Shown piece after piece: positions 8,063-30,185 of a DNA stretch of 64,000 bases; within the stretch, counting starts at the first letter, position 1; each line of letters starts with the position of its first letter. Origin of the DNA: an uncultured Chitinophagaceae bacterium (GTDB lineage: Bacteria; Bacteroidota; Bacteroidia; Chitinophagales; Chitinophagaceae). The notes beneath the pieces are model-generated. The model searched no databases and was not told the origin of the DNA. It worked only from the letters and a program-made list of their open reading frames with translations. The stretch spans positions 45,448 through 109,447 of the forward strand of contig CALCII010000013.1 in the NCBI GenBank assembly GCA_937907395.1, read 5' to 3'. A program made the position numbers and the translations under genes.

Positions 8063-8097
8063 ACTTCACATTTTCGTTCTACACAATATTGTTCCAG

Positions 8098-8778: not shown

Positions 8779-8784
8779 ATACTG

Positions 8785-9165: not shown

Positions 9166-9169
9166 ACTA

Positions 9170-11933: not shown

Positions 11934-12112
11934 ATCTATTTGCTTTAGCGGATGGAGCAAATAGTTTTCCAAATACAGAATTAATGGGGTAAGGAAGGTA
12001 GCACTAACTGATAGTAGTGCTCTTTCAGTTTCCTTTTGAATTGTGATTGCAGTACATTTTTTGAATAAATCCTATATCTTACTTATTCATTTGAAAAAGC
12101 AGCTATTATCTA

Positions 12113-12742
12113 ATGAAGATTATTGGTAAATTATTTTCACTATTTAAGAAAGATTGTATGGTAGAAGAACTTTATAAAATTGGTGCTTACCATGAAGCCG
12201 GACATGCGGTATTAGGATTTTACTCAGGATTTGAAGTCAAAAGCATTTCATTAATAATCGCCGATCCCGGCAGCGGTATCACAAGGTTTGATTATGGTAT
12301 AGACAATTTATTAATTACTGGAATTTTAAATGCAAAGAAAGACCCTGCATTTTTCAATTCACTTTCACAACCTGTCAGAGCAAGGACTCCTCAAACGTGT
12401 TTAAAAATATGCAATACACTAATTGCAGGACCTGTTGCAGAAGCCATAAATAAATTTGGCATTGACTACACTGGCAATATGGAAGTTGGTATTAAAGATC
12501 CGGATGCCGAGGGGATTGAAGCTGCTGATTATGTACTTTCAATAATTGACAAGAACCATAGTAAAACATATTTACAAGAAACAATTATTTCAATAACTGA
12601 GATTTTAAGAAATGAACAATTTTGGAAGGTTGTAATCAGCTTATCCGATAAGTTGTTAAGCTCCAAAGCTAAAATGCTTACACAGCAAGAAATTGAAGCT
12701 GTTTTCGAAAAGCATAATTTCACTCAATATGACAGATTATAA
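12113..12742 (+). CDS. stand-alone FtsH-type (peptidase M41-like) zinc metalloprotease domain with no AAA+ module
   Basis: 209 aa. AYHEAGHAVLG has HEAGH encoded at 12191-12205 (verified). Downstream, IAGPVAEA...DPDAEGIEAADYVL is colinear with the FtsH GGRAAEE...ASNDIxxAT region. It is the only plus-strand gene inside the tra block. Confidence 0.6.
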   Translation: MKIIGKLFSLFKKDCMVEELYKIGAYHEAGHAVLGFYSGFEVKSISLIIADPGSGITRFDYGIDNLLITGILNAKKDPAFFNSLSQPVRARTPQTCLKICNTLIAGPVAEAINKFGIDYTGNMEVGIKDPDAEGIEAADYVLSIIDKNHSKTYLQETIISITEILRNEQFWKVVISLSDKLLSSKAKMLTQQEIEAVFEKHNFTQYDRL

Positions 12743-12786
12743 ATTATATAAGGGCAAACTTCATCAGCATAGAGATAATGCAGCAA

Positions 12787-15700
12787 CTAAATCCTAATGC
12801 CCTTTGTTTTTCCTTCGCTTACCTTTCTCTTTGCTAATAAGGATTTTTCATCTTTTTGTGTTTTAATTTCCAACTTTACTACCGGAGTTTCAACTGCTAC
12901 TTCAGCAGTCTCATGCTGCTTAATCTGGTTTGCCTGTATCTTCATCGTAATCTCCCTTTCCAATCTTGAAACGTCTTTCTTTAACTGTGCCAACTCATCT
13001 TCTTTATCAAAAGGCTTTGCTGCTATTTTTTCGAGCATTGGAATATTTTGATTGAGCTCGTTGAGTTCTTTTTGATATTTTTCTTTTAAGCTTTCAATCC
13101 GGTCAATGGCATTTAGTAAATACCGGGCGGCCAATTTTGGATTATCAATATTGATATGGCCCTGGTTCCAGGAGTATTTTATGCCAGTTTGTTTACTCTC
13201 TGCATAGAACACATTACTGTATTTGTATTCAAACAACCCTTTGTCCTCATAAGTTTCTTTTTGCCTGCGGATAAATAAATCAAAGCCATGCAGTTCTCCA
13301 ATCTTTTTATTATCATGGTCACCAATATCAGGTTTCCAGTCTGTGTAGAGACGTATTAAATGGTTGCCGATAGTTTCTGCATCTGCACTATTTAGACCTT
13401 CAAGATGAATAGGGTTAATTTTTATTCCGTCTTTATCATACTGTAACTGATTTTTGTATTGCTTTTCATCTATGCTCAACTTGTCTAAAGTCTGCAGTGT
13501 TTTACCTTTTACTTCCTGAAGATTTTCTAATTTAAACCTTGACCGGAATATTTCTTTATGGTGAGCATTGCGTAAGCTTTCTAAAACCGCTATCTTTTTT
13601 TCCATCTTTGATTTTTCCAGTAGCGTAGTATCTCCAGAAAGTATGGCGATGTATTCGGAGAAATTCATACCACTTTTTTCGTCAATGCTTCCTTCATCAA
13701 TTGTTCTTACATTTAATTCGCAATTCTTCATCTGGCTGATAAAGGTTTGCTTATTCTTCAAAAGGTTGAACTTATAGTTATCCAGCGATTGCTCAACGGC
13801 GTAGATAAAATTCTTAACCTTATTATTGTAAAATTCTTTGGCAACAATATTTCCCTGTCTTGCACCACGACCATCTCTTTGCTCCAGTTCAGAAGGTTTC
13901 CAGGGAATATCCAAATGGTGCATGGCAACTACCTTCGCCTGCACATTTAAACCAGTGCCTGCCTTCTCCGTGCTGCCTAACATAATCCTTATTTCACCAT
14001 TATTCATCTTACGAAACAGTTCTGGCTTTTGCTTATCTGTCCAGTCATGTATGAATGTGATATGATAGGCAGGAATTTTAAAATCGTTAATTAGTTTTTC
14101 TTTCAGGGCATCATAAATATTAAATTCATCAGGCTTGGGAGTACCAATATCACAGAATATAATTTGTGTTCCATTTTGCTCTTTGCTCAGGTCATAAATT
14201 TCAGCTACTTTTCTTGCACAGACATTTACTTTATTATTTGGATGGTCGTTGTATTTACCGGAGTCAATCAGTCGCATATCAGCGGCCATTTTTTTTGCAT
14301 AGTTCGTTGCAATCAGCATACGACCTTTATCTTCTTCATCTGTCAGTCTTGGCCTGCCGATTAATTCGCCGTCACCTGTTTTGGCAAATTGCATCAGTCG
14401 TTTTGTAAATTCCTGTTGCTCTGGTGTTGGTGGAATATTGATTAACTGTTCATCAATTTCAGGTTTATCCAAATTAATATGCTTGGCCGTTTTATAATCA
14501 GTAATCTCATTATAGAACAATGCCAGTTCAGGAACTTTTATAAAATGACGAAACCTTTCTTTCGCAATGATTTCATTTGTTACTGAAAATTCAAAGTCGG
14601 TTGTTTTCTTCGCAAACACAGCAGCCCATGCATCAAAATTTTCAATCCGTTGCCGCTCCATTTCTTTTGGGCGCAGGTATTTAAACAGCAGGTACATTTC
14701 AGTCAAGCTGTTGCTGATAGGTGTGCCGGAAAGAAAGGTAACACACAGGTCGCTGTTAAATCTTGTTTGCAGTTCCCGAACAGCAAACAACATATTCAGT
14801 GCTTTCTGGCTTCCTTCTTTATTTCCCAGCCCAGCAACTCTATCATGTCGTGTAGTGTAAGTAAGATTTTTATATTTGTGGGCCTCATCTACAAACAAAT
14901 GATCAACTCCGAGTTCCCGGAAGTTGATCCCCGCATCTTTCTTTTCTTCAATATTTTTTCTAAGTTCCTGGAGCTTCACAGCAAGATTTGTTTTTCGTAT
15001 CTCCAGTCCTTTCAACATACGGCGGGAGATTTCTCCGCCCATTTCTTTAAGGGTATGCAAATCTCTTTCTACATTATCCAGCTCTGTCTCAAAAATCTGC
15101 TTTTGTATTTCAGGGCTTTGGGGAATTTTTCCAAACTGGTCATGCGTGAGAATAATGCAATCCCAATTATTATTTTTTATTTCATGAAATAAGCGCAATC
15201 GTTTAGCTGGAGTAAAATCATTTTCGTCCGGAGCCAATATTCTTGCATTGGGGTATGCTTTTCTGTAAGTTTCTGCAATCTGCCGCACATTAGCTTTAAG
15301 TGCAAGTATCATTGGCTTGTTTACAATCTTCAGCCTTTTCATTTCATGTGAAGCAACCACCATCGTCAATGTTTTTCCCAAGCCCACTTCATGGTCAATC
15401 AATGCTCCACGATTTTGCACAATACGCCAAACCGAGTTTTTTTGTGAACTATACAAGTCATCAATACTTAACCTTCTCTTGTCAAGACCTGGAAATTGTA
15501 AATGGCTACCATCATATTCTCTCAATACATAACAATTGAATGTATCGTTATACAGGGCCTCTAATTCTTTTTTGTCATTTGCTGGTAACTCTTTTAACCA
15601 GTCAATAAAGCCATTGCGGATAGATTCTATTTTCTGGTGTGCCAACTGAATGGCTTCATTATCCGGAACCCGGATTGTTTTATCACCCAGATCAACTTCG

Positions 15701-18291
15701 TAAGTGTAGAAGGGTGTAGTATTCTCCAACGCATGTTCTAATAGCAAAGCTCCGTACGTAGTTTTTCCGCTCTTGGTTGTTACTGCATACTCCTGGTTTG
15801 TTTTTGCATTGCTGCTGAAGGGTTTTACTTTAAATGAATCAACAGAAGGGAAATAGCTAACATCGGTGTTCATCTCAAAAAGATGAGTAGCAAAACGATT
15901 GTAGTAATCATTAGGTATCCAACGTTCGCCAAGGTTGAAGTCTAGTAATTCAAAAGGAATTTTTTCAGGCTGTACTTTTTGTAAAGCAGAGAGGCTTTTA
16001 AACAATTGCAGATTATCTGGATTCTTCTCTGCTGCTTCTGACGCTACTCGTAGCTTACTCACCACATTGCCGCTTAGAAACTGGTCGGCTGTTTCCCATT
16101 CATTGTTAGCCGGATTAATGTAAATATGGTTACCCAAAGCGGCAATAGTTTCAGGTTCTGTACTGTCTGTTGCCGCAGCAATAAACTCTATATCCACCTT
16201 GCCTTTATCATTCAAGCTTTTTGCCAGGGCTTCTAAAGGATTGTCGGTTGTATAAACTTCCTGTTTCGGTAATAATGATTGTGTGAGAATATCAGCCTTT
16301 ACAAATTGTTCGCCGTATTTTCTTTCGAGAGAAGAAAGCATGGTTAATCCAAATGCTTCATCTTTTAGAATGCGTTGCCTGTTGGCAGGTGAATTCAAAA
16401 GACCAAATCCTTTAATCAATGCTTCATAAGCTTCGTTCAAATCCCTCCTTACATTCTCATCTACGTGAGTTCCTGTATTTTCTTTTTCGGAAAGCGCCAG
16501 GTACATATCTCGTATGGTGCTGTATTGCTGATAAAACCCCAGGTCTTTCTTATCATGCAGGCTGGGCATAAAGACCGGTTTGTCATCATCCGATGCCATG
16601 TAGGAAACAAAGCCAACACGGTTGTTATGTACAATCAGCGTTCCTTCTTTGTAAAAAGGATTAGCGTTATGTAATGTATCCAGTTTATCATCGTCTCCCA
16701 ATGAAACATGAAACACAGTGTCACCATCATTGTAAAACTGTTGGTCATATTTTTTGAGTGCATTGGTTAAGCCTGTCAATTCATGTTGGAGTAGGCCAGC
16801 ATTCATCCAGTTAGCTGAGAACTGTAATTCTTCGGCATTGGAGTAAAGTTTATAAACATATTGTTTGAAAGCTGTTGATTTGGCCGTCATCAAAACAATA
16901 AGTTCATGCTCTGGCTTGTCAACTGGCCGGATAATATTGAGAATTCTCGCCGTTTTTTTGTCAACAACCGTCAAATCAAGAGGATTGATATAGGCGTTAG
17001 CCCTGTTGATACTTGTAGCAGACCCATTATCAAACAAACCCAATTGCACCGAGCTGCTATCCGGCTTGTTGTCAGGCATAGCTGTATAAGTGAGTTGTCT
17101 TTCTTTTGACTTATCAATCTGTTTTATTTGCCTGTTGAAATTATCGGCATTAAATCTTTTGTCAATCCCTTTGCTGATTGAATCAGCAAGCTTTGGCATT
17201 ATAAGTTTAATATTTCCGGTTTGCCAGACCGTTTCATGTGCCTTCCCATATTGGTCCTTACCAGGCTTAATTTGGTTGCCAAGAATTATTTCAGGATGAA
17301 GAACAACGTATTGATTGAGGGAGTAATTACCAAATTCATTTTCCTGATCAACTGATTTTATCAGTTGCTGTTCTTCTTCTGTTAAAGATTGTTTGTCTTT
17401 ATTTTTTTGCACAATCAGCAAATGACTGGAAGCTTCTGTATTACCCGTATCTTTCATCAGGTTATCCGGCATTATATTCAGGCTGACAAAATCGGAATTG
17501 CCGAATAAATATTCTCTTGCTGATTGATTAGACGGACTATTTAAAAAGGAATCAGTGCTGATGTATGCCATCAGCCCGCCATCCTTTAGCTTATCAAGTC
17601 CCTTTGCAAAGAAATAGTTATGTATTTTATCTGTTAGCCCTCTCTCATTTATCGTATCATCATACACTTTAAAATTCCCAAAGGGAATATTGCTCACAAT
17701 TAAATCATACTGCCCATTCTCTGAAGAAGCCGTTTCTTCAAAGCCTTTTATTTCAATGGACGTAGGAACAGATATAGAACTACTTAATGCAGTTAATACT
17801 TTGCCTGTTATAAGATCTTTCTCAACTGCGGTGATTGTCTTCAATGACGGAAATGTCGCTGCGGCCTCGGTTACAAACACACCGGCACCGGCGCTGGGTT
17901 CGTACAAGGATCTTGGTTCAACACCTCTTTCTTTTAAGATGCTAAACAACGTCTGAGGAATGAAGTCGGGTGTATAAAAAGCTGTTAGAATGCTGTTGCG
18001 GATTGAATCAATTGCATCTTTATATTCTTTGTCTGTAAGTTTTTGCTGCAATATCTCATGCAGCTCCATTATTTGTGGGTATAGTTTTAAATCTTCCTTC
18101 GATGCATTTAGCTTCTTCCATTCTTCTTTAACAGCTTTTGGAAACAGAACAGCTTTCAACCCACCAAAACCGGAATACTTCTTTAATGCAGAAATCTGGT
18201 CAGAGGACAACACCATTCCTTCTGACCAGTTCAAAGAAATCCGAATAGCTTCGATATTGTCTTTAAGTTTCTGCTGACTGTTGTAACTCAT
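12787..18291 (-). CDS. polyvalent N6-adenine DNA methyltransferase / SNF2-DEAH helicase fusion protein
   Basis: 1834 aa. SAM motif I YEPSAGAGVF at 17875-17901. Catalytic NIPF at 17680-17691 (verified). Helicase motif I HEVGLGKTL, motif II DEAH at 14878-14889 (verified), LSGTPISNS and QRDGRGARQGN. Confidence 0.9.
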   Translation of the reverse strand: MSYNSQQKLKDNIEAIRISLNWSEGMVLSSDQISALKKYSGFGGLKAVLFPKAVKEEWKKLNASKEDLKLYPQIMELHEILQQKLTDKEYKDAIDSIRNSILTAFYTPDFIPQTLFSILKERGVEPRSLYEPSAGAGVFVTEAAATFPSLKTITAVEKDLITGKVLTALSSSISVPTSIEIKGFEETASSENGQYDLIVSNIPFGNFKVYDDTINERGLTDKIHNYFFAKGLDKLKDGGLMAYISTDSFLNSPSNQSAREYLFGNSDFVSLNIMPDNLMKDTGNTEASSHLLIVQKNKDKQSLTEEEQQLIKSVDQENEFGNYSLNQYVVLHPEIILGNQIKPGKDQYGKAHETVWQTGNIKLIMPKLADSISKGIDKRFNADNFNRQIKQIDKSKERQLTYTAMPDNKPDSSSVQLGLFDNGSATSINRANAYINPLDLTVVDKKTARILNIIRPVDKPEHELIVLMTAKSTAFKQYVYKLYSNAEELQFSANWMNAGLLQHELTGLTNALKKYDQQFYNDGDTVFHVSLGDDDKLDTLHNANPFYKEGTLIVHNNRVGFVSYMASDDDKPVFMPSLHDKKDLGFYQQYSTIRDMYLALSEKENTGTHVDENVRRDLNEAYEALIKGFGLLNSPANRQRILKDEAFGLTMLSSLERKYGEQFVKADILTQSLLPKQEVYTTDNPLEALAKSLNDKGKVDIEFIAAATDSTEPETIAALGNHIYINPANNEWETADQFLSGNVVSKLRVASEAAEKNPDNLQLFKSLSALQKVQPEKIPFELLDFNLGERWIPNDYYNRFATHLFEMNTDVSYFPSVDSFKVKPFSSNAKTNQEYAVTTKSGKTTYGALLLEHALENTTPFYTYEVDLGDKTIRVPDNEAIQLAHQKIESIRNGFIDWLKELPANDKKELEALYNDTFNCYVLREYDGSHLQFPGLDKRRLSIDDLYSSQKNSVWRIVQNRGALIDHEVGLGKTLTMVVASHEMKRLKIVNKPMILALKANVRQIAETYRKAYPNARILAPDENDFTPAKRLRLFHEIKNNNWDCIILTHDQFGKIPQSPEIQKQIFETELDNVERDLHTLKEMGGEISRRMLKGLEIRKTNLAVKLQELRKNIEEKKDAGINFRELGVDHLFVDEAHKYKNLTYTTRHDRVAGLGNKEGSQKALNMLFAVRELQTRFNSDLCVTFLSGTPISNSLTEMYLLFKYLRPKEMERQRIENFDAWAAVFAKKTTDFEFSVTNEIIAKERFRHFIKVPELALFYNEITDYKTAKHINLDKPEIDEQLINIPPTPEQQEFTKRLMQFAKTGDGELIGRPRLTDEEDKGRMLIATNYAKKMAADMRLIDSGKYNDHPNNKVNVCARKVAEIYDLSKEQNGTQIIFCDIGTPKPDEFNIYDALKEKLINDFKIPAYHITFIHDWTDKQKPELFRKMNNGEIRIMLGSTEKAGTGLNVQAKVVAMHHLDIPWKPSELEQRDGRGARQGNIVAKEFYNNKVKNFIYAVEQSLDNYKFNLLKNKQTFISQMKNCELNVRTIDEGSIDEKSGMNFSEYIAILSGDTTLLEKSKMEKKIAVLESLRNAHHKEIFRSRFKLENLQEVKGKTLQTLDKLSIDEKQYKNQLQYDKDGIKINPIHLEGLNSADAETIGNHLIRLYTDWKPDIGDHDNKKIGELHGFDLFIRRQKETYEDKGLFEYKYSNVFYAESKQTGIKYSWNQGHINIDNPKLAARYLLNAIDRIESLKEKYQKELNELNQNIPMLEKIAAKPFDKEDELAQLKKDVSRLEREITMKIQANQIKQHETAEVAVETPVVKLEIKTQKDEKSLLAKRKVSEGKTKGIRI

Positions 18292-18745
18292 TGCTCACAG
18301 TTTCATTCACACGGTTACTTTCCAGGTATTCACTCACTGCACCGGTTATGGCATAGCGGATAAATTGGTTATCCTCGTTTTCCTCTACGAATCGTAAATC
18401 ATCAAAAATGGAATTGCAGTAGTTAATCATATTGATAATCTCATGCTGAAGTAATCCTGATTGAAGAAGCTGTTCATAATCCCTTTCAAATTCCATTTCC
18501 AGAATGTTAAGGATGTAATTGTACAGTGAAGGCCGCAAATCCCTTGTCATTTCTTCAAGGCATATTTCCTCAATGATGTAATCAAGTTGTTTATCGCTTT
18601 TTAACTGCTGGATTAATGGCTCTGCACTGTATGCTTTATCATATAGCCAGGATCGTAGTTTATCTTCTGCTTCTAGTGCAAAAAGTATATCCGGGTTATT
18701 ATCCCTGATATACTCCAATAATTTGCCGATTAAGATTTCTTTCAT
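18263..18745 (-). CDS. DUF1896-like protein (usual upstream partner of the methylase/helicase in Bacteroidota CTns)
   Basis: The ATG at 18745 (MKEILIGKLLEYIRDNNPD...) avoids overlap with traE. The track start at 18823 would overlap traE. The ORF ends 29 nt inside the methylase ORF. Confidence 0.55.
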   Translation of the reverse strand: MKEILIGKLLEYIRDNNPDILFALEAEDKLRSWLYDKAYSAEPLIQQLKSDKQLDYIIEEICLEEMTRDLRPSLYNYILNILEMEFERDYEQLLQSGLLQHEIINMINYCNSIFDDLRFVEENEDNQFIRYAITGAVSEYLESNRVNETVSNELQQSAET

Positions 18746-18756
18746 ACACAATGGTT

Positions 18757-19077
18757 TTATACACCAAAGAATGAGCGGATAACGGTGGCTACTATCACCA
18801 GGAATACACAACTCCCAAACCATGCAGCTGCAACTTTACCGGTATCATGGTCGCCGCTGTTCCATTTTTGATAGACTTTTACAGCGCCGATCAACCCTAC
18901 AATAGCACCCACCGCATACATCAGGTTTACACCAGCAGCAAAATAGCTTCTTACTTTAGTGTTAGCTTCGTTTATACCAGCGTTGCCATCCTGGGCCAAC
19001 GCTGATACTGTAACCAGCAGCAACAAAAAAGAGACTGTTCCATAAATCAATTTTCTTCTTGCAATCACTGTTTTCAT
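18757..19077 (-). CDS. traE: TraE-like pilin-type small membrane protein (DUF4134)
   Basis: The ATG at 19077 gives MKTVIARRK..., a signal/TM segment, AGINEANTKVRSYF and two hydrophobic helices. This is typical of DUF4134. Confidence 0.75.
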   Translation of the reverse strand: MKTVIARRKLIYGTVSFLLLLVTVSALAQDGNAGINEANTKVRSYFAAGVNLMYAVGAIVGLIGAVKVYQKWNSGDHDTGKVAAAWFGSCVFLVIVATVIRSFFGV

Positions 19078-19080
19078 ACA

Positions 19081-19171
19081 CACATTAATTTGAAAAATGA
19101 ATAAAAAAAAGAATGCTTCATTATGCTAACCCATCGCACTTGATTTTCTTGCCCGCAGATAATGAAGCATT
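19081..19171 (-). terminator. 13-bp perfect inverted repeat followed (in the minus-strand sense) by C+T8: terminator/attenuator-like element just upstream of traE
   Basis: AATGCTTCATTAT at 19112-19124 and ATAATGAAGCATT at 19159-19171, with a 34-nt spacer. The A8 run at 19103-19110 on the plus strand becomes a U8 run after the hairpin on the minus-strand RNA. Confidence 0.4.
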
Positions 19172-22638: not shown

Positions 22639-22833
22639 AAGACCATTTTTTGAGGCAAATTTCCTCCTAATTAAATCTCAAAATTCGTTCCGTTTGGTTT
22701 GAAAAAGTTTTGCGTATGAGCAGAAATGTTTTGCAATCGGGATTTTTTTCAGCTATGTTCTGCTGATTTTAATAAAACCCCAAGCCGATTGTTGTTATTG
22801 GGATTTGTTTTGAGTAAGAATGTCTTCAAATAT

Positions 22834-22874
22834 CCGGTTTGTTACATTTTTGGAGAAATTTGTAACAAACTCGG
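22834..22874 (-). terminator. hairpin directly after the stop of the 177-aa gene
   Basis: CCGGTTTGTTACA at 22834-22846 pairs with TGTAACAAACTCGG at 22861-22874. There are 10 perfect bp, extendable with one bulge. The U tract on the minus strand is weak. Confidence 0.4.
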
Positions 22875-22876
22875 TT

Positions 22877-23410
22877 TTAGTTAAGCATTTTTTTCAACTC
22901 ATTATCAGTTGCTTTGTAGTTATATTCCTTCAGATATTTAATGATTGCAGAAAGACGGAGAATATCTTCTGCACCTGCATTTCTCAATGCCTTAAATAGT
23001 TTTTTGAACCTCACATCATCTTTGCTATTTATGGTCTTTGATTCTTTTCGAAATAATTCCAAATCTTCAGGAAGCTCAAAATCTATAGGCGATAATCCTG
23101 CATCGGCCAGGCAATTGAAAATAAACCGTTCCATACCGGGCACAATCTGGATAATATAATGGTGCCTTATTTTATGTTTATGCAAAATCAGCCCGTCCGA
23201 CTTACCGACTTCAGTGAACTCCTTCAGGTAATCTACTTCTTTTTTGTCCTTATCAATAACACCCACAGCAAAGCTATCGGTAAACTTTTCCTTCATCACT
23301 TTAGTAACAGTGCCGCACCCTTTCTGATGATTGTATTGCTTTTGTGGAGGAACCAATGTCTCCACAAGATTAGTGTCCACGTAGCATTCAGGGATAACAG
23401 CCAGATCCAT
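22877..23410 (-). CDS. mini Toprim-like protein (DUF4435/DUF4276/RloB-like pattern), partner of the upstream ATPase
   Basis: 177 aa. E8 lies in AVIPECYVDTNLVE, followed by KGCGTV and DxD in VGVIDKDKK (GAT AAG GAC at 23246-23254, verified). Its ATG overlaps the ATPase stop (TAATG at 23408-23412). Confidence 0.5.
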   Translation of the reverse strand: MDLAVIPECYVDTNLVETLVPPQKQYNHQKGCGTVTKVMKEKFTDSFAVGVIDKDKKEVDYLKEFTEVGKSDGLILHKHKIRHHYIIQIVPGMERFIFNCLADAGLSPIDFELPEDLELFRKESKTINSKDDVRFKKLFKALRNAGAEDILRLSAIIKYLKEYNYKATDNELKKMLN

Positions 23411-24396
23411 TAAACGAAACTTTCATTGTTGGTAAATAAGTCCACTCCACTTTGAAACACATCGTGCATCTCATCGTCGCTTAACTTTCTCAATCTTGTT
23501 TCATGATGTTCGTAATGCACAACAAAAACTGAAAGCTCTGACCTGCTGTTTTCGAGCAAATCATTTAAGATAAAAGGACTATGTGTAGCAATGAAGTATT
23601 GATTATCCTTTTTATAGATCATTTCCTGAGTCAGATGAGCCATATAAGGAGGAAAGGAATGAGCTTCAGGTTCTTCAAAAAGAAGAATACTATTATTATT
23701 TGATGCAATTGCAGCCTTAAAGAAAATAATGCGTTGCAGGGTATCTGCAATCGAATTATACGGGATCAGAAATATTGAATTTTGTTCTTCTGATTGAATG
23801 ATTTTAATTGTTTGGCTGCTTTTGTCAAATGCAATTTCAAGATTGTATTCTTTAAAAAGGCGAAGTACCTGCTGCTTTAGTTCATCATAGTTTTCAATTA
23901 CGCTTAAGAGATTAAATCCAAACGGAGGTATTAGATATTTTGAGTGCGACCTACGGTATTTAATTTCGGTTTTGAAAACGTATTTCTTAATTGGTGCTTC
24001 GTATAGTTCATTCTTAAAGCCACCTTTTACATTAAATTTTTCATCAACTTTATAATTAAACGAATTACTATAAAAATTAAGCTCAATTTTTAAACCCTCT
24101 TTGGGATTATATCCTAGTCTGCATTCGCCTTCGTTTGTCTTAATTTTTGCATCTCTTTCGATGTTCCCATTATAAAATAATTCTGTTTCATTCTCAAGCC
24201 TGATGAGATTAGAAAGTCTTTTTGAGGTGTTTTCTTTCAAATAAGGGATAGAGAACAAAGAGAGGGCCTCGATAATGTTTGACTTACCGACATTAGGACG
24301 ACCAATAAAAAGATTTATCCTTTTAAGATTATCAATTTCAAGTTGCTTGATTGACTTAAAATTTTCTATTGAAATATGATCAAGAAAATTCCTCAT
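23410..24396 (-). CDS. OLD/ABC-type (AAA_15/AAA_21-like) ATPase without a fused nuclease domain
   Basis: 328 aa. Walker A GRPNVGKS at 24280-24303, signature-like SIADTLQR, Walker B ILLFEEPEAH and H-loop IATHSPF. Confidence 0.8.
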   Translation of the reverse strand: MRNFLDHISIENFKSIKQLEIDNLKRINLFIGRPNVGKSNIIEALSLFSIPYLKENTSKRLSNLIRLENETELFYNGNIERDAKIKTNEGECRLGYNPKEGLKIELNFYSNSFNYKVDEKFNVKGGFKNELYEAPIKKYVFKTEIKYRRSHSKYLIPPFGFNLLSVIENYDELKQQVLRLFKEYNLEIAFDKSSQTIKIIQSEEQNSIFLIPYNSIADTLQRIIFFKAAIASNNNSILLFEEPEAHSFPPYMAHLTQEMIYKKDNQYFIATHSPFILNDLLENSRSELSVFVVHYEHHETRLRKLSDDEMHDVFQSGVDLFTNNESFV

Positions 24397-24407
24397 GATG
24401 TGAAGCC

Positions 24408-24698
24408 TTACTTGGCTTTATCTTTTTTAATTTTTTGTCCAGAATTTATATCATTGATTACAAGACGAAAAACTTCGACCGGATCTACCTCAAATAAAGA
24501 AGCCAGTGAGGTTATATCTTTAACCGTAAGCATATCTCCGGTGTTAACTCGTCTTCGAAGAGTATTATAATTTATCTTCATATCCTCCCTAACGGTAGAC
24601 AAAGGAATGATTGTAAACACATCCTTTAAACCGTTAATTCCCTTTGAATCAATCAAAGATTTAATGGCCTTGTAGCGCTGATCTTTAAATGCTTTCAT
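24408..24698 (-). CDS. small (96 aa) probable DNA-binding protein, first gene of the ATPase operon
   Basis: ATG start, 11 nt upstream of the ATPase ATG. IPLSTVREDMKINYNTLRRRVNTGDMLTVKDITSLASLFEVDPVEVFRLV looks like an HTH-type fold with a basic tail. The assignment is weak. Confidence 0.4.
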   Translation of the reverse strand: MKAFKDQRYKAIKSLIDSKGINGLKDVFTIIPLSTVREDMKINYNTLRRRVNTGDMLTVKDITSLASLFEVDPVEVFRLVINDINSGQKIKKDKAK

Positions 24699-24875
24699 TT
24701 TCTATTTGTAAAATAGGCCACCGGGCTTGAGCAAGGATGAGATTTTACTATTATTGAATTATAATAATTCTTAAATAGAAAATAATAGTCTATATTTGAA
24801 TTGTTTGGAGTTCTATTTAGTTCAGGTACTTGCTGCCTGTGAATTATGTGAATTCACTTTTCAAATGCATATCCC

Positions 24876-25478
24876 TTGAGTTTGCGTTCTGTAGATACTT
24901 CCACTTTTAACGAGTATGCCTCATTGTTTCAAAGAGGTGACGAAAAAGCACTGGCCTTCTTTTACCACGAGTTCCACCCCACTTTAGCCCTCCATGCCCA
25001 CCGCTGGATAGAAGACCGCTCTATTGCTGAGGAAATAGCCTCAGAAGCCCTTGTAAAAACCTGGAAGATGCACTGGAAGCTGGACAGCTATGGAGCCATC
25101 CGGGCATACCTGTATAAGGTCGTTCAAAGGGACAGTCTTGCGTACATCCGCAAGGAAAAGAAAAGAACAGCCATGCACCAGCAATCGCAGCCTTACCAAT
25201 CCATTTCAGATACCCCGTTTGACCATGTAGTACGCAGCGAGGTGTACCGTATCATTCATACCGCCCTTAAAGACCTTTCTCCAGCCAACCGCAAGGTAAT
25301 CGTCATGCATTACCTGGAAGGCAAAACCACCGGGCAGATAGCACGGGAACTTAAATTACATCGCAGTACTGTTAATACACAAAAAACCAAAGGATTGGCG
25401 GCCCTTCGCAAAAGCCTGCTGCGGCCAATGTTAATCCTGTTTTATCTTATTGTAAAAATTTTCTTTCCTTTTTCGTAG
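24876..25478 (+). CDS. ECF-type RNA polymerase sigma-70 family factor
   Basis: 200 aa. Region 2 (ALAFFYHEFHPTL...YLYKVVQRDSLAYIRK) and region 4 (NRKVIVMHYLEGKTTGQIARELKLHRSTVNTQKTKGL). It starts at TTG with no in-frame ATG nearby. Confidence 0.8.
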   Translation: MSLRSVDTSTFNEYASLFQRGDEKALAFFYHEFHPTLALHAHRWIEDRSIAEEIASEALVKTWKMHWKLDSYGAIRAYLYKVVQRDSLAYIRKEKKRTAMHQQSQPYQSISDTPFDHVVRSEVYRIIHTALKDLSPANRKVIVMHYLEGKTTGQIARELKLHRSTVNTQKTKGLAALRKSLLRPMLILFYLIVKIFFPFS

Positions 25479-25531
25479 TACATTTTCTCCTGACTTTACT
25501 TTCTCTTATTTGCTTGTTTTAACTTAATAGC

Positions 25532-26731
25532 ATGAAACAAAATCCTTACAGCGATATGGATCAACCGGCATACCGTATTGCCTATCTCATAGCGGCTTTT
25601 ATCAGGAATACAATTACAGAAAAAGAGCATGATGAACTGGATGATTGGGTAAACGAAAGCGATGATAATATGCGGCTCTTTGAAGAATTGACGGATGAAC
25701 GAAACCTTGAAGCCAATCTTGCATGGATGGACAAGGTACAAACGGAACAATCATATAAGACCTTGCAGGAAAAAGGTGCATTTGATATACCTCGAAAAAA
25801 GTTTCAGCTAAGCCCGGTATGGATAGCGGCGGCAAGTGTTATTCTTATTGTTGGTGTATTTATTATTTATCGCTTTGCAGGAAACAGCAGTACGGATGAT
25901 AATAACGTTGCTGTTTCTGATACCACTCAGTTAAAGCCTGGTGGCAACCGGGCAACACTGACCCTTCCCGATGGTTCCGTTATTGATTTAACAACGGCTA
26001 ACAACGGAATAATTGAAATTGGTAAAGGCTCTCATGTGAACAAACCGGCCGCTGGAGAGTTAGTGTATGATGCGGGTGTTAGTACTGATGAAACTCCGTC
26101 TATTCATACACTCTCCACACCGGTGGGTGGTCAGTATCAGCTCACACTACCGGATGGTAGTAAAGTGTGGCTGAATGCGGCAACAAAATTGAAGTATCCA
26201 TCGAGGTTTGTTTCCAGTGAACGCAAAGTGGAAATTGATGGCGAAGCTTATTTTGAAGTAGTAAAAAATGATAAGCAGCCGTTTCGTTTAGTGATGCAGG
26301 ATGGTTCTACTGTAACAGTATTGGGTACTCATTTTAACGTAATGTCCTACGCTAACGAAACGCAAAAAGAAATAACACTGCTGGAAGGAAAAGTAGCAGT
26401 TGCAAAAAATAATAGTATAGAAAATCTTGAGCCTGGAACACAGGCGATTGTTAAAACAGATGCAATAACCAAAAGAACCGGAATTGATACGGAAGAAATA
26501 ACAGCATGGAAAAACGGGCTATTTGTTTTTCATGATGCAACGATTGAATCTATCATGAAGCAGGTAGAAAGATGGTATGATGCAAAGGTGGTGTACAAAG
26601 GAGATGTGAAACAATTATTCAATGCCAGCATATTGCGGAGCGAACCATTGTCAAAGCTTCTGCGTTTGCTGGAACTTAACGGATATGTACATTTTAAAAT
26701 TGAAAACAAAACGATTTATGTATTACCCTGA
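25532..26731 (+). CDS. FecR-family anti-sigma factor / transmembrane sensor
   Basis: 399 aa. It has an N-terminal cytoplasmic part, one TM (VWIAAASVILIVGVFIIY) and a FecR domain (LTLPDGSKVWLNAATKLKYP...EAYFEV). Confidence 0.85.
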   Translation: MKQNPYSDMDQPAYRIAYLIAAFIRNTITEKEHDELDDWVNESDDNMRLFEELTDERNLEANLAWMDKVQTEQSYKTLQEKGAFDIPRKKFQLSPVWIAAASVILIVGVFIIYRFAGNSSTDDNNVAVSDTTQLKPGGNRATLTLPDGSVIDLTTANNGIIEIGKGSHVNKPAAGELVYDAGVSTDETPSIHTLSTPVGGQYQLTLPDGSKVWLNAATKLKYPSRFVSSERKVEIDGEAYFEVVKNDKQPFRLVMQDGSTVTVLGTHFNVMSYANETQKEITLLEGKVAVAKNNSIENLEPGTQAIVKTDAITKRTGIDTEEITAWKNGLFVFHDATIESIMKQVERWYDAKVVYKGDVKQLFNASILRSEPLSKLLRLLELNGYVHFKIENKTIYVLP

Positions 26732-26864
26732 CGATTAAATAAACCAACGGTTAATACAAACAAAAAGCCGGAAGTGTTACTAGCACTGCCGGCGGAGTTT
26801 GGGTTAACCCTTACTATCAACTGAGGCTATCAACTGAATTCAGAAACCCAAACATTACAAAGCT

Positions 26865-29800
26865 ATGCAAATTATTACTGCGGGGGAAAGACTAAAGTGC
26901 ATACTAACTATGAAACTTTTAATCCTGTTTACCGTAATCACCTGCCTTCAGGCTTCTGCAAGAAGCTATGGTCAAACAGTATCTTTATCTCTCCAAAACG
27001 CTCCGTTAGAAAAAGCCTTTAAAGAAATAAAAAGGCAAACCGGTTACTCATTTGTTTATACAAGGGCACAACTTAAAAACACCAGCCCTATTACATACCA
27101 GGTAACCAACGGCTCTTTAAAAGATGTTCTTGAACAGTGTTTCCGTAATCAACCGCTTTCTTTCGTAATAGAAGATAAGTATATCGTTGTGCAGAATAAA
27201 AGCAGTACAACTTTTGCTGTGCCACCCGAAACGAAACAAATTCCAATTGATATCAGAGGAAAAGTTGTTGGAGAAAATGGGGAGCCATTACCAGGTGTAA
27301 CTATTACTGCAAAAAAATCAAACAAAGTAACTTCTACAAACGAACAAGGTGAATTTCTCCTGAAAGGGATAGATGAAGAAGATATTCTTGCAATATCAAG
27401 TGTAGGGTATTATAAAGAAGAAGTTGAAGTAAATAGCCAAACTTTCATATTAATACGACTTAGGCTTTTCATAGGAAATCTTGATGAGACGATTGTTATT
27501 GGGTATGGCAAAACCACAAGGAGACTTAGTACAGGAAATGTGAGTAAAGTGTCATCGCAAGAAATCAACCGTCAACCTGTATCAAATCCACTTGCCACAT
27601 TACACGGAAGAGTTCCTGGCCTGATCGTAACACAATCAAGCGGCATCTCTGGTTCCTCCATTAAAATTCAGATAAGGGGTCAAAATTCATTAACACAAGG
27701 CTCTGAGCCATTGTTTATTATTGATGGAGTACCCTTTGCTGCAAACAACCAGTCAGTTAACAATCTCACTTCAATTCTAACCACTGGAATTGCCGCTGGC
27801 TTGAGTCCGTTTTCCAGCATTAATCCGCAGGATATAGAAAGTATAGAAATTTTAAAGGACGCTGATGCCACTGCGATCTACGGAAGTCGAGGTGCAAATG
27901 GGGTGGTTTTAATTACAACAAAAAAAGGGAAGGCAGGTAAAACTAAAGTAACTGCAAATTTTTATTCAGGTTGGAGCAAAGTCACACGGACAATGAACAT
28001 GCTTACTACCAAAAGCTATTTACAAATGCGGAGAGAAGCATTTGCAAACGATGGACTAACTCCATCATCCGATCCAGCTTCTGTCGGATATGCACCAGAT
28101 CTGTTGCTATGGGACACGTTAAGAAATACAGATTTCAAAAAACTGATGATAGGCGGAACTGCTTTTGCCTATAATGGCCAGGCAACAATCTCCGGCGGAA
28201 ATCAAAATATTCAATTCTTATTGAGTAATAATTTTAATCATGAAGGCACTGTATTTCCGGGAGACATGGCACTTAACAGAGTGTCATTTAATAACAATAT
28301 TAGTTATACAGGGGATAACAAAAAATTCTCCGTTCAATTTACCGGCAATTATTCTAATACAAAAAACAATCTTATCAACGCTTCGGTATCTTCATTTTTG
28401 TTATTGCCACCAAATGCGCCTCCCCTTTATACTGATGACGGAAAATTAAACTGGGAAGAAAACAGCATCGCTTTTGAGAATCCATTGGCATATTTACTTC
28501 GAAAATATTCCGCAGAAACTGAAAACTTGTTAAGCCGAATACAGATTGAATATAAAGTTCTTCCGGAACTTTCTTTAAAAGCAAGTTTTGGTTACAACTC
28601 GATGTTAGTTGCTGAAGAATCAATTAGTCCGATTGCCGCTCAAAATCCAATAAATAATCCAGTGGGGACTTTAAGTTTAGGAAATAATAATTTCAAAAGT
28701 TGGATTGTAGAACCTCAGGCTGAATATCGATGTAACATCGGTAAAGGAACACTCAGCATTCTCGCAGGAACATCATTTCAGAAAAACATAAGAAAGGGAT
28801 TGTTTATCGAAGCGTCTGGTTATGTAAATGACAACCTAATTAGGTCGCTTGTTGGTGGTACAATAACTGCGAAACGTAACAATCTTACAGAATATAAGTA
28901 TCAAGCTGTTTTTGGAAGAATCAATTACAATCTAAATAAAAAATATTTGTTCAATCTTACAGGAAGAAGGGATGGCTCAAGTCGTTTTGGCCCAGGAAAG
29001 CAGTTTGCGAATTTTGGCGCAGTAGGATTTGGCTGGCTGTTTCACAAGGAGCGATTCCTTGAAAAAAACCTCCATTTTCTCAGCTATGGAAAACTAAGAT
29101 CGAGCTATGGAATAACTGGGAATGATCAGATCGGAGATTACAATTATTTAGACTTTTGGAATATCAATAGTAACACCTATCAGGGTTCGCAAACATTAAA
29201 TCCATCTGGTCTTTTTAATGCAGATTATGGATGGGAATCCAATCGGAAATTTGAAATAGGACTTGAATTAGGATTTATTAAAGACCGCATATTGCTTACT
29301 GCATCGTTCTTTGACAATAAAAGCGATAACCAGCTTGTTAGTTACAGGTTACCTGGTCAAACGGGTTTCCCAAGCATTACGAAAAATTTTCCTGCACTTA
29401 TTCAGAATAAAGGATTTGAATTTGAATTTATTGCCTATCCATATAAAAGCGAGTATCTAATCTGGATGACTTCTATAAACATAAGCATTCCCAAAAACAA
29501 GTTGATTTCATTTCCGTTACTTTCTAGTTCAAGCTATGCTTCAACTTATGTAGAAGGCAAATCGCTGAACTTGATTTATCAGTTACATTCACTTGGTGTT
29601 GATCCAACAAGCGGAGTTTTCAATTTCGAAGACGTTAATAGGGACAATGTAATAAGCATACCGGGCGATTTCAGAGTTATGGGAAATATTGATCCGGTTT
29701 ATTATGGTGGATTTCGTAATAATATTTCTTATAAAAACATAGAGCTTGATTTTTTATTTGAGTTCAAAAAGCAAACCGGAAGAAATTTTTTGTATTCAAT

Positions 29801-30185
29801 CTATGGAAACAACTTCCTTCCAGGATTTATGAGTAATCAGCCAGTAGCGGTTTTAAACCGCTGGCAAAAAACAGGCGACTTAAGTGACGTACAAAAATTT
29901 ACTGCAGTAACTACAAGCCTTGCGTATGAAAACAGAAACAACTTCCGGGCTTCTAACGGGGTATATAGCGATGCGTCATTTGCGAGATTAAAAACTCTTT
30001 CTCTTTCCTGGCACTTACCAACATCGCTCTTTGGGAAATCAAAATCAATCGAATCACGTATTTATATTCATGGGCAAAATCTACTTACACTAACAAAGTA
30101 TAAAGGATCAGATCCTGAAGTGCAGAATTTATATGTTTTGCCGCCATTAAAAACAATTGCAGCTGGAGTTCAAATAACTTTTTAA
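26865..30185 (+). CDS. susC: SusC/RagA-family TonB-dependent receptor with an N-terminal STN signalling domain
   Basis: 1106 aa. STN (LSLQNAPLEKAFKEIKRQTGYSFVY), CarboxypepD_reg (IRGKVVGENGEPLPGVTITAK), plug (DAxAxxIYGSRGANGVVLITTKKG) and a C-terminal beta-barrel ending in F. The true start may be M16 at 26910. Confidence 0.9.
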   Translation: MQIITAGERLKCILTMKLLILFTVITCLQASARSYGQTVSLSLQNAPLEKAFKEIKRQTGYSFVYTRAQLKNTSPITYQVTNGSLKDVLEQCFRNQPLSFVIEDKYIVVQNKSSTTFAVPPETKQIPIDIRGKVVGENGEPLPGVTITAKKSNKVTSTNEQGEFLLKGIDEEDILAISSVGYYKEEVEVNSQTFILIRLRLFIGNLDETIVIGYGKTTRRLSTGNVSKVSSQEINRQPVSNPLATLHGRVPGLIVTQSSGISGSSIKIQIRGQNSLTQGSEPLFIIDGVPFAANNQSVNNLTSILTTGIAAGLSPFSSINPQDIESIEILKDADATAIYGSRGANGVVLITTKKGKAGKTKVTANFYSGWSKVTRTMNMLTTKSYLQMRREAFANDGLTPSSDPASVGYAPDLLLWDTLRNTDFKKLMIGGTAFAYNGQATISGGNQNIQFLLSNNFNHEGTVFPGDMALNRVSFNNNISYTGDNKKFSVQFTGNYSNTKNNLINASVSSFLLLPPNAPPLYTDDGKLNWEENSIAFENPLAYLLRKYSAETENLLSRIQIEYKVLPELSLKASFGYNSMLVAEESISPIAAQNPINNPVGTLSLGNNNFKSWIVEPQAEYRCNIGKGTLSILAGTSFQKNIRKGLFIEASGYVNDNLIRSLVGGTITAKRNNLTEYKYQAVFGRINYNLNKKYLFNLTGRRDGSSRFGPGKQFANFGAVGFGWLFHKERFLEKNLHFLSYGKLRSSYGITGNDQIGDYNYLDFWNINSNTYQGSQTLNPSGLFNADYGWESNRKFEIGLELGFIKDRILLTASFFDNKSDNQLVSYRLPGQTGFPSITKNFPALIQNKGFEFEFIAYPYKSEYLIWMTSINISIPKNKLISFPLLSSSSYASTYVEGKSLNLIYQLHSLGVDPTSGVFNFEDVNRDNVISIPGDFRVMGNIDPVYYGGFRNNISYKNIELDFLFEFKKQTGRNFLYSIYGNNFLPGFMSNQPVAVLNRWQKTGDLSDVQKFTAVTTSLAYENRNNFRASNGVYSDASFARLKTLSLSWHLPTSLFGKSKSIESRIYIHGQNLLTLTKYKGSDPEVQNLYVLPPLKTIAAGVQITF

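Follow-up and report, generated by a model that had tools for sequence, protein, structure and literature searches.

The core of the operon located at positions 22834-24698 of the window (i.e. the whole 64,000-nt stretch of DNA that was analysed) is a self-contained two-gene module, in which the gene of a minimal ABC-type ATPase (OLD/AriA/AbiLi-like) is translationally coupled to that of a partner protein of approx. 150-180 aa. The best explanation for this pair, to which we give about an even chance, is a conflict or defence module made up of an ABC ATPase and a nuclease-like partner. A survey of neighbourhood conservation, proposed as a check in the original prediction for this DNA, bore out the pairing: the ATPase gene was found directly upstream of a homologue of the 177-aa partner gene in 79/80 genomic loci and, because this adjacency recurs, the arrangement is not a product of chance.

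In the window, the pair is preceded by a gene encoding a 96-aa protein (the leader). The three ORFs (96, 328 and 177 aa) are co-directional and all are located on the minus strand (Table 1). The first two are separated by an 11-nt gap (24397-24407), while the stop codon of the ATPase gene and the start codon of the 177-aa gene have one base in common (TAATG, 23412-23408). In all 88 loci in which this stop/start junction was measured, the distance fell between -23 and +8 nt, with an overlap of 1 nt in 42/88 and of 4 nt in 10/88. A hairpin begins 2 nt past the stop codon of the 177-aa gene. It consists of a 10-bp perfect stem followed, beyond a 1-nt bulge, by 3 more pairs, and it folds with -14.7 kcal/mol (z = -3.75 relative to 200 shuffled sequences, 1/200 of which folds equally well). 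The hairpin is rich in AT, its U tract is weak, and a consensus terminator scan did not flag it. The co-directional trio, the gap, the overlap and the hairpin were thus all confirmed as originally described.

The intergenic region upstream of the leader gene shows 97% identity among four related contigs (approx. 92% for the locus overall). It contains, approx. 45-85 nt upstream of the leader gene, an imperfect palindrome with 19-nt arms (79% complementary), a 1-nt spacer and the core GAATTAT-T-ATAATTC. The palindrome is a candidate operator for the leader protein, and it could be a chance occurrence because it is AT-rich. Neither the Bacteroidota -7 promoter motif (TAnnTTTG) was found in the 200 nt upstream of the leader gene, nor did a sigma-70 promoter scan give a score higher than that of shuffled sequences.

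Table 1 Features of the operon and of its upstream region (positions of the window)
Feature	Position	Strand	Basis
Stem-loop, probably the operon's terminator or a 3'-end structure of its RNA	22834..22874	-	RNA fold
177-aa partner protein, family undescribed	22877..23410	-	ORF, family searches, AF2
E94 codon, at least 90% conserved, helix N-terminus after strand 83-88	23129..23131	-	alignment, DSSP
D53-K54-D55 codons, invariant DxD, directly after a beta strand	23246..23254	-	alignments, DSSP
E8 codon, invariant, directly after strand beta1	23387..23389	-	alignments, DSSP
328-aa minimal ABC/OLD-type ATPase (AAA_15/AAA_21)	23410..24396	-	Pfam, PADLOC
H-loop T271-HSP274 (ATHSP 270-274)	23575..23586	-	'THSP' at least 95% conserved, 70 homologues
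Walker B and D-loop I237-LLFEEPEAH246	23659..23688	-	'FEEPEAH' at least 95% conserved, 70 homologues
ABC-signature-like motif S215-IADTLQR222	23731..23754	-	sequence, family alignment
Variable insert, residues ~77-190, between Walker A and signature motif	23827..24168	-	alignment
Walker A / P-loop G32-RPNVGK38-S39	24280..24303	-	sequence
96-aa leader gene, putative divergent XRE-like helix-turn-helix (HTH) protein	24408..24698	-	hhalign, PHROG
Imperfect palindrome, candidate operator for the HTH leader	24744..24782	.	repeat search

The ATPase and its variable insert

The original prediction of an OLD/ABC-type ATPase without a nuclease was upheld. In Pfam, the 328-aa protein matched AAA_15 (E-value 2.3e-13, 51.0 bits, cut-off 32.1) and AAA_21 (6.7e-10, 39.9 bits, cut-off 27); it carries no fused effector or nuclease domain and is annotated in one source as 'AAA15 family ATPase/GTPase'. 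The motifs quoted in the prediction (GRPNVGKS with K38, SIADTLQR, ILLFEEPEAH and ATHSP) were all found in place, and their order is complete: (i) Walker A, (ii) the signature-like motif, (iii) Walker B with the D-loop and (iv) the H-loop. These motifs are nearly invariant among 70 homologues; 'IG.PNVGKSN' is at least 95% conserved (archaeal provirus copy included) and 'S.sDtLQR.IF' is kept family-wide, with SDTLQRIIF in the archaeal provirus protein gp15.

A variable insert separates Walker A from the signature motif, and its residues ~81-155 contain zero conserved positions across the family. In one pair of loci (L047 and L048) the insert is swapped, the two versions being unalignable, and the accompanying partner proteins are 100% identical. 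Another pair of loci (L057 and L060) shows a swap of the same kind. The insert is therewith a candidate sensor region. Related loci share approx. 92% DNA identity, yet their ATPases are 99-100% identical, and their partner proteins show 4 differences within residues 1-146. Judged from these sequences, purifying selection on the pair is strong.

The partner protein and its relation to the Toprim fold

No significant match of the partner was found in Pfam, PADLOC, NCBIfam or PHROGs. Its family (552 clusters at 90% identity and 999 representatives at 50%) is composed nearly entirely of stand-alone proteins of approx. 150-190 aa, with an N-terminal alpha/beta part containing acidic residues and a C-terminal helical part, and the C-terminal tail differs among close relatives. 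The motifs IPECYVD (E8), KGCGTV and VIDKDKK (D53, D55), on which the original prediction had drawn, are present in the 177-aa protein. Two alignments (A2, 59 sequences; A6, 67 sequences from both branches of the family) revealed that E8, D53 and D55 are the sole invariant columns, followed by C9, D12, G50 and E94, which are at least 90% conserved. Moreover, E8 and D53xD55 persist down to 18% identity, in bacteria as well as in archaea.

The AF2 model of the partner (pLDDT 86.8, pTM 0.85) is most confident in the C-terminal half, an all-helical bundle, and less so in the N-terminal half, which is the site of the motifs (pLDDT of 58-88 in 10-residue blocks). DSSP assigned beta1 to residues 3-6 and placed a strand (residues 47-52) before DxD. 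The arrangement E...DxD(...E) at the C-terminal ends of beta strands marks the protein as a putative divalent-metal-dependent phosphodiesterase, most likely a nuclease, and the partner is a candidate metal-dependent nuclease effector. Other affiliations were considered and rejected. Searches of the PDB with three profiles of rising diversity gave weak, helical, C-terminal matches to CopM/DUF305 (E ~0.007-0.01), which were judged spurious. A PIN-like (from the 'VDTN' motif) or NERD-like protein yielded spurious hhalign matches of 17-23 columns, and the PIN fold did not appear in the Foldseek output for the model.

In the Toprim signature, a Glu follows beta1 and DxD follows a later strand (PMC12065111), and the original prediction had recognised a minimal version of it in the partner. 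The residues bear this out: E8, invariant in 67 sequences, directly follows the strand of residues 3-6, and DxD stands after a strand that may be the equivalent of Toprim beta3. The predicted Toprim/DUF4276-like fold, however, was not found when the AF2 model was examined. No Toprim was present among the 50 best Foldseek matches in the PDB (best match: E 0.17, probability 0.14, TM 0.26), although a DUF4276 control retrieved the OLD Toprim (6nk8/6njv) with a probability of 1.00 and TM 0.5-0.56. The three-layer alpha/beta architecture with the four-stranded parallel sheet 2-1-3-4 was not recognised in the model, of which the N-terminal half is the less confident one and in which there is no strand between alpha1 and alpha2, where Toprim beta2 belongs, and a beta-hairpin occupies the place of Toprim alpha3. 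Foldseek revealed no fold neighbour of the model in the PDB or BFVD, PDB profile searches with the family did not find Toprim, and the window partner had no match to Toprim, DUF4435, RloB or DUF4276 in Pfam. The "Toprim" identity of the partner is not demonstrated.

The partner may be a derived Toprim near DUF4276, RloB and DUF4435, and the pair a divergent branch of the HEC-01/AbiL/PARIS type, a reading that comes close to an even chance and stays somewhat below it. In its favour are the exact coincidence of the invariant residues with the signature and an hhalign register (E8/E10, G31/G39, D53xD55/D66xD68, E94/E103) that is collinear with DUF4276 over 96-144 columns, far beyond the columns covered by the PIN and NERD comparators; mapped onto two DSSP strings, this register matches 6/8 secondary-structure elements. 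Faint matches point the same way, both to DUF4276 in Pfam (2/59 members, best E 0.027) and to HEC-01B in PADLOC (single members matching two models, 0.019 and 0.029). The alignment with DUF4276 is, however, not significant (E 0.05 and 0.075 in two independent hhalign runs, probability approx. 1%) and 7/100 block-shuffled profiles scored as high, which, together with the Foldseek result, the missing beta2 and the hairpin at the alpha3 position, speaks against this reading. A derived Toprim would refine the best explanation and does not exclude it.

Genomic context and the regulator slot

The leader probably regulates transcription of the pair, as its sequence suggests. It had no match in Pfam (HTH included) or PADLOC, and its PHROG matches to transcriptional regulators or repressors were weak (E 0.0066 and 0.023). 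Comparison of a 5-member leader family with XRE leaders by hhalign gave E 2.4e-5 and a probability of 76% over 47 columns of the HTH core, in agreement with the DNA-binding-like character initially attributed to the protein. What did not hold is the idea of the trio as a conserved unit, since it is the pair that is conserved. The leader was detected by tblastn in 1/80 family loci, and sensitive search (phmmer) added four distant relatives (L066, L036, L029 and L022; 3.5e-7 to 0.014, the latter being marginal), located 3-24 nt upstream of the ATPase gene; a conserved three-gene system was therefore rejected. Elsewhere the slot holds HTH_3 or wHTH genes unrelated to the leader, or is empty, and the leader is a lineage-specific occupant of this variable regulator slot, outside the conserved module.

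Occurrence of the exact leader sequence on 30 contigs, versus 4-6, had given rise to the idea that the leader moves around without the pair. This was rejected, as every locus examined contained the full trio, and the ATPase/partner pair follows the exact 96-aa protein in 7/7 distinct places.

The module is mobile. In the window, it is located between CTnDOT-type tra genes and the metal-resistance cargo of an integrative and conjugative element (ICE), and elsewhere it is carried by the archaeal provirus GahPV1 as gp15/gp16 (hhalign probability 99.1%, E 1.8e-18). A RelE/ParE toxin gene is situated near the pair in this provirus. The pair was also identified in a Methanomassiliicoccales archaeon, KSB1 and Planctomycetes. 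A total of 244 stretches encoding relatives were found among 185,579 species genomes, with a patchy spread. The partner had no match on sequenced plasmids or bacteriophages, and a Parabacteroides replicon carries one truncated ATPase gene, with the partner absent.

The junction between tra genes and cargo is real, but the defence-island position that had been read from it is not general. Among 109 neighbouring ORFs from 37 diverse loci there were one AbiEi/AbiEii pair, one PtuA and one DrmD, the rest being mostly ordinary genes, and no defence-island enrichment was seen in the raw counts within +/-2.5 kb of these 37 loci. In Prolixibacteraceae-type loci of several genera, the pair keeps the same position, flanked by phoH-like and purC-like genes, which looks like stable vertical inheritance and is unusual for defence genes.

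RecF is an ABC-type ATPase and RecR is a small Toprim-containing protein. By the same logic the pair could be a non-immune module for DNA maintenance or repair, or else a stabilisation or addiction module of mobile elements, and we consider this improbable. The steady phoH-like/purC-like synteny and the chiefly non-defence neighbours fit a non-immune role; ICE and provirus carriage is where stabilisation modules are common (the nearby RelE/ParE gene being a case in point), and the N-terminus of the ATPase matches RecF (TIGR00611, 2.1e-7), SMC_N and RecN. Nevertheless, the RecF/SMC matches cover the P-loop region only (30.5 bits against a curated cut-off of 172), and the zinc-finger and helix-hairpin-helix parts of RecR appeared in no search. 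The sparse, patchy spread over phyla and domains argues against a core function, and a hypervariable, swapped insert beside an identical partner typifies conflict systems rather than repair factors.

Relation to named systems and a proposed mode of action

PADLOC scans bore out the expectation that no named system matches the locus end to end, and a literature search did not find a named system matching the pair. The best PADLOC matches of the window ATPase were PDC-M38A (1e-20) and AbiLi (5e-20), with GajA, AriA and HEC-01A at approx. 1e-15 to 1e-16, all of these being partial or superfamily-level. AbiL, consisting of the ATPase AbiLi and the RloB-like Toprim protein AbiLii, is likewise a two-gene operon of an ATPase and a small partner, and its AbiLi model matched the archaeal and KSB1 ATPases over their full length. 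For its second component no counterpart was detected, as AbiLii/RloB gave no PADLOC or Pfam match among the 59 + 6 partner members scanned.

The nearest catalogued analogue is HEC-01, composed of the ABC ATPase HEC-01A and the DUF4276 Toprim protein HEC-01B, for which no protection was seen when it was assayed in E. coli (Payne et al., bioRxiv 10.1101/2024.01.29.577857). In both loci, the first gene encodes an ABC ATPase of the AAA_15/21 type and overlaps with a second one, whose product is a stand-alone protein of approx. 190 aa with E...DxD...E in the same order and at similar spacing; mobile or defence contexts are also common to the two. The differences are as follows: (i) the window partner is not a detectable DUF4276 protein (hhalign, Pfam and Foldseek with a positive control) and had no PADLOC match, HEC-01B included, (ii) the ATPase is shorter (328 versus 395 aa), with HEC-01A models matching it in two partial stretches (3e-15 to 1.5e-12) and BLASTP against the tested HEC-01A aligning the Walker A region only, and (iii) no Hma/MADS system surrounds the pair.

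PARIS combines the ABC ATPase AriA (~55 kDa), whose IS1/IS2 coiled-coil insertions build a hexameric scaffold, with the DUF4435 Toprim nuclease AriB (35 kDa) (PMC11464382). The pair resembles it in its frequent carriage on mobile elements and, by analogy, in that an ABC ATPase carrying a variable insertion would serve as sensor or scaffold next to a separate metal-dependent nuclease. The proteins of the pair are, however, 38 and 20 kDa, and 328 aa is too short for the AriA insertions as described to fit. AriA models matched the ATPases at 5e-16 to 3e-18 (window copy 5e-16, ATPase core only), AriB/DUF4435 had no PADLOC or Pfam match in the window partner, 59 family members or 6 short-branch members, and Foldseek of the partner model did not find AriB. 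In MADS (MAD3/MAD4, an AAA ATPase with a DUF4276 protein) and Menshen (NsnB/NsnC), ABC ATPases are found with interchangeable small nuclease effectors (PMC12065111). NCBIfam MAD3 matched the ATPase C-terminus (1e-8, 34.8 bits against a cut-off of 420) and PADLOC NsnB aligned with full-length ATPases (~1e-13 to 1e-17), but neither a methyltransferase or other MADS genes nor NsnA or NsnC are present here. Membership in PDC-M03 was rejected: PDC-M03B gave an isolated match in 1/59 members (4.5e-5) and none in the 6 short-branch partners, and PDC-M03A was not among the best 25 matches of any ATPase scanned.

For the conflict or defence module that we favour, the following mode of action may be proposed. 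By analogy to PARIS, AbiL and HEC-01, the ATPase, probably a dimer or higher oligomer, would keep the partner in an inactive state. An invader-derived cue might be sensed by the hypervariable insert that separates Walker A of the ATPase from its signature motif, and ATP binding or hydrolysis would then free or activate the partner. The partner could then cut nucleic acid (tRNA or DNA), so that the infection is aborted or a competing mobile element is blocked. In the Terrimonas-type element, the putative divergent XRE-like HTH protein at the head of the operon would be the likely regulator and the stem-loop would end the operon. An ABC ATPase with a separate effector works in this manner in PARIS (PMC11464382) and in HEC-01/02/03 architectures (bioRxiv 10.1101/2024.01.29.577857), and it is by analogy that complex formation, nuclease activity, trigger and defence phenotype are suggested for the pair. 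We infer the defence role from the architecture, the mobile-element carriage and the swapped ATPase insert. That the partner represents a new metal-dependent nuclease fold, or a remodelled Toprim missed by fold and profile searches, and the pair a widespread and so far undescribed system of immunity or conflict, common to Bacteroidota, several other bacterial phyla, Archaea and an archaeal virus and with the insert as specificity sensor, seems conceivable but rather unlikely. It is very improbable that the 177-aa protein has no catalytic role and acts as an adaptor or regulator of the ATPase, with acidic residues binding a metal or nucleotide ligand and the ATPase or an unlinked host factor as the effector. 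In favour of this, no similarity to any enzyme family was detected, the C-terminal helical bundle is as expected of an interaction domain and the tail is variable between close relatives. However, a catalytic two-metal site classically shows just such an invariant E + DxD at strand ends, kept here to 18% identity, and the small partner is the nuclease effector in the characterised ABC-ATPase pairs treated in the literature consulted (PMC12065111, PMC11464382, bioRxiv 10.1101/2024.01.29.577857).

Pairs of an ABC ATPase and an effector (PARIS, AbiL, Septu, Menshen, HEC-01 to HEC-03) are an emerging major class of prokaryotic immunity, of which the pair, if it acts in defence, would be a very compact member (38 + 20 kDa). 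If it does not, a strictly coupled pair of an ATPase and an acidic-motif protein, kept between housekeeping genes in several genera, still marks a conserved function yet to be named. The partner family comprises approx. 1,000 clusters at 50% identity, unannotated and without a structural neighbour in the PDB, and the pair is common to both prokaryotic domains, its carriers including an ICE and an archaeal provirus. As it was missed by every annotation library searched, inventories of Bacteroidota and archaeal defence probably overlook it. The natural insert swap between L047 and L048 provides a handle on how such ATPases encode specificity.

Gene arrangement and the conserved unit

The three genes were found on the minus strand, co-directional and tightly packed as originally predicted: direct reading of the sequence revealed an 11-nt spacer between the leader and ATPase genes, and a TAATG junction in which one base is common to the ATPase stop and the start of the downstream partner gene (encoding a protein with acidic motifs). 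The predicted terminal hairpin also folds (-14.7 kcal/mol, z = -3.75); its U tract is weak and a consensus terminator scan gave no call for it.

Features of the window and of the compared loci (aa, residues of the protein)
Feature	Location	Strand	Description
Leader	24408-24698	-	ORF, 96 aa
ATPase	23410-24396	-	ORF, 328 aa
Partner	22877-23410	-	ORF, 177 aa
Hairpin	22834-22874		10-bp perfect stem and 3 more pairs past a 1-nt bulge
Palindrome	24744-24782		imperfect, core GAATTAT-T-ATAATTC
Direct repeat	24835-24855		GAATTCAC ATAATTCAC
ATPase motif	K38		GRPNVGKS
ATPase motif	aa 215-222		SIADTLQR
ATPase motif	aa 237-246		ILLFEEPEAH
ATPase motif	aa 270-274		ATHSP
Swapped ATPase insert	L047:4934-5995; L048:4982-5995		equivalent window region 23827-24168
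gp14-gp16 (Geoglobus ahangari pleomorphic virus 1)	L082 (BK065157.1):2627-4412		wHTH gp14, 330-aa ATPase gp15, overlapping 149-aa partner homologue gp16
Split ATPase	L094:1362-2360		128-aa and 157-aa ORFs
tra genes	271-19083		CTnDOT-type
Methylase/helicase fusion	12787-18291	-	1834 aa
ECF sigma, FecR and SusC-like genes	24876-30185	+
Metal-resistance cargo	about 28-64 kb		Cus-type
ACR_tran ORFs	38062-39351; 39354-41279	+	429 aa; 641 aa
CusA-type pump	57622-60789		intact, 1055 aa

The 177-nt region between the leader gene and a divergent ECF sigma factor gene, containing the palindrome and, near it, the direct repeat, is 97% conserved among related contigs. At the other end, two additional ORFs separate the partner gene from the GNAT gene in L084, L085, L086 and L089 (5823-6915, versus window 22640-22876), one for a 122-aa response regulator and one of 42 aa. 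Partners of related contigs differ at 13 positions in the last 30 residues (beside the indel), versus 4 in residues 1-146.

Partner relatives are encoded on 244 stretches of species-representative genomes, and in the 80 kept as loci (almost all from Bacteroidota) the ATPase gene lies immediately upstream of the partner gene in all but one, which is cut by a contig end (79/80). The stop/start junction measures -23 to +8 nt in 88 of 88 loci, with overlaps of 1 nt in 42 and 4 nt in 10. The same order occurs in contigs from archaea, KSB1 and Planctomycetes. It also occurs in Geoglobus ahangari pleomorphic virus 1: full-length identity between gp15 and the ATPase is 35%, and hhalign assigns gp16 to the partner family with probability 99.1% and E 1.8e-18. 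Close to these genes, this archaeal pleolipovirus provirus encodes a RelE/ParE toxin and another wHTH protein. At the sequence level, confidence in the pairing and in the motif conservation is high. In a Planctomycetes-type contig (L094) the ATPase gene is split beside an intact partner gene, possibly by pseudogenisation or an assembly error.

The leader is DNA-binding-like, as had been proposed, its family matching the HTH core of XRE-type proteins (hhalign E 2.4e-5, probability 76%), and in its own lineage the three genes stay together in each of 7 distinct places. Across the 80 loci, tblastn recovered it in the same-species locus only; distant relatives lie 3-24 nt upstream of the ATPase gene in 4 other loci (1 marginal). 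Elsewhere, some leaders are clearly HTH_3, many loci have none, and one in the scanned set, presumably that of the archaeal provirus, matches HxlR. Because it is lineage-restricted, and replaced by other HTH leaders or absent elsewhere, the leader would be the occupant of a variable regulator slot and not a system component. A conserved three-gene system, as originally envisaged, is thus ruled out in favour of the pair.

An ATPase with a variable insert

The ATPase exceeded the thresholds of two Pfam models, AAA_15 and AAA_21. Its PADLOC matches (PDC-M38A, AbiLi, GajA, AriA and HEC-01A; 1e-20 to 1e-15) were all partial and confined to the ATPase core, and those in NCBIfam (retron Eco8 effector, MAD3, RecF) fell far below threshold. 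In a set of 70 homologues that contains an archaeal virus copy, conservation reaches at least 95% in four motifs: Walker A (PNVGKSN), a signature-like motif (SDTLQR), Walker B/D-loop (FEEPEAH) and H-loop (THSP). Residues about 81-155 contain no conserved position. Because of these matches, the four retained motifs and the variable stretch, the protein reads as a minimal ABC/OLD-type ATPase that is intact, has a variable insert and lacks a fused effector, in agreement with the complete motif set and missing nuclease domain first described.

In two Mariniphaga genomes (L047 and L048), the partners are 100% identical, the ATPase C-termini identical and the PhoH-like proteins 99% identical; ATPase residues about 77-190 share 32% identity, with indels, and blastn gives no alignment of the insert DNA. 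L057 and L060 follow the same pattern. The insert domain appears to have been exchanged as a cassette, and a specificity-determining sensor would show such a swappable insert beside a fixed effector.

The partner family and the Toprim question

The partner had no significant match in Pfam, PADLOC, NCBIfam or PHROGs. At 90% identity its family forms 552 clusters; at 50% identity there are 999 representatives, nearly all stand-alone and about 150-190 aa long. A branch of shorter proteins (about 150 aa) is found in Methanomassiliicoccales, KSB1, Planctomycetes and Spirosomataceae and in an Archaeoglobi provirus. E8, D53 and D55 alone are invariant in alignments of 59, then 67 sequences (the latter extending to 18% identity); these are exactly the predicted signature residues (all predicted ATPase and partner motifs were found in place). 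C9, D12, G50 and E94 are conserved at at least 90%. As a sequence feature, the acidic metal-site signature is solid, and the partner is a fairly probable candidate for a metal-dependent nuclease effector.

Toprim descent or fold is possible, at a little under an even chance, and not demonstrated. The AlphaFold2 model (30-sequence alignment; pLDDT 86.8, pTM 0.85), weaker over the N-terminal 60 residues (10-residue block means 58-88), places each of the three acidic motifs after a predicted beta strand. Foldseek found nothing in PDB (best E 0.17, probability <=0.14, TM <=0.26) and no match in BFVD. The positive control, the DUF4276 protein HEC-01B (sequence from Supplementary Table 2, bioRxiv 10.1101/2024.01.29.577857; homologues gathered, then modelled), gave a canonical b1-a1-b2-a2-b3-a3-b4 model (pLDDT 93.8), and in the same PDB search its top matches were to the Toprim region of the OLD nuclease (probability 1.00, TM 0.5-0.56). 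The pipeline is therefore able to detect small Toprim partners, and the fold comparison detected none here, an outcome that the original prediction had named as counting against it. Profile-profile comparison with DUF4276 yielded a collinear full-length alignment, with E8/E10, G31/G39, DxD/DxD and E94/E103 in register, at E 0.05 and 0.075 (probability about 1%), and 7 of 100 block-shuffled profiles scored equally well. By our mapping of this register onto DSSP strings, 6 of 8 secondary-structure elements agree; Toprim beta2 is unmodelled in the partner, and a beta-hairpin stands where alpha3 is expected. Of the proposed Toprim-like effector, the invariant acidic residues thus stand, but the fold was unseen by Foldseek and the DUF4276 match non-significant. 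PIN and NERD comparators produced short spurious matches only.

PARIS, AbiL and HEC-01 share the architecture of the pair (HEC-01, an ABC ATPase with a DUF4276 protein, is the closest kind, followed by AbiL and PARIS), and the ATPase belongs to their ATPase superfamily, but the partner fails the defining test of each. Neither partner branch is covered by a model in PADLOC v2, Pfam or NCBIfam, and no named system matching the pair was found in the literature. The pair is classified as combining a minimal ABC ATPase and a member of an undescribed E/DxD effector family, with an optional HTH regulator.

Genomic setting and possible role

A defence or conflict function is slightly favoured, by analogy, because of the PARIS/AbiL/HEC-01-like architecture, carriage on an ICE and on an archaeal provirus, patchy distribution across phyla, strong purifying selection and the insert mosaic. 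In the window the pair indeed lies between ICE transfer genes and cargo. Against this role, ordinary genes dominate the 109 neighbouring ORFs of 37 diverse loci, which does not bear out a defence-island position as typical of the family; known defence genes are sporadic there (one AbiEi/AbiEii pair, one PtuA, one DrmD). Moreover, in Prolixibacteraceae-type loci phoH-like and purC-like genes flank the pair in a synteny shared across genera, the pair is absent from the sequenced plasmids and bacteriophages searched, and HEC-01 was negative in E. coli assays (bioRxiv 10.1101/2024.01.29.577857).

ECF sigma factor genes recur beside the pair, for example in the window, L003, L007 and L092 (7 of the 109 ORFs, plus a KSB1 contig). 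FecR and SusC-like genes often accompany them, and the recurrence may simply reflect the abundance of such genes in Bacteroidota. Within the transfer cluster, between DUF4134 (TraE-like) and DUF4133 (TraF-like) genes, a fusion protein combines Eco57I-like methylase, SNF2/helicase and DUF8437/DUF8438 domains. In the cargo, two adjacent ACR_tran ORFs in different frames jointly equal one CusA-type RND pump and probably represent a single gene that was split or frameshifted; an unbroken copy lies further along.

Overall, the best explanation, about as likely as not, is a defence-type two-gene module of a putative ATPase sensor and a candidate metal-dependent nuclease partner. Directly downstream of the pair in a Sphingobacteriales MAG lies L004:6681-8517, which, judging from position and sizes, is probably the AbiEi/AbiEii pair of the PADLOC neighbour scan; if so, this locus would be among the few that place the pair next to a known defence or toxin-antitoxin system.
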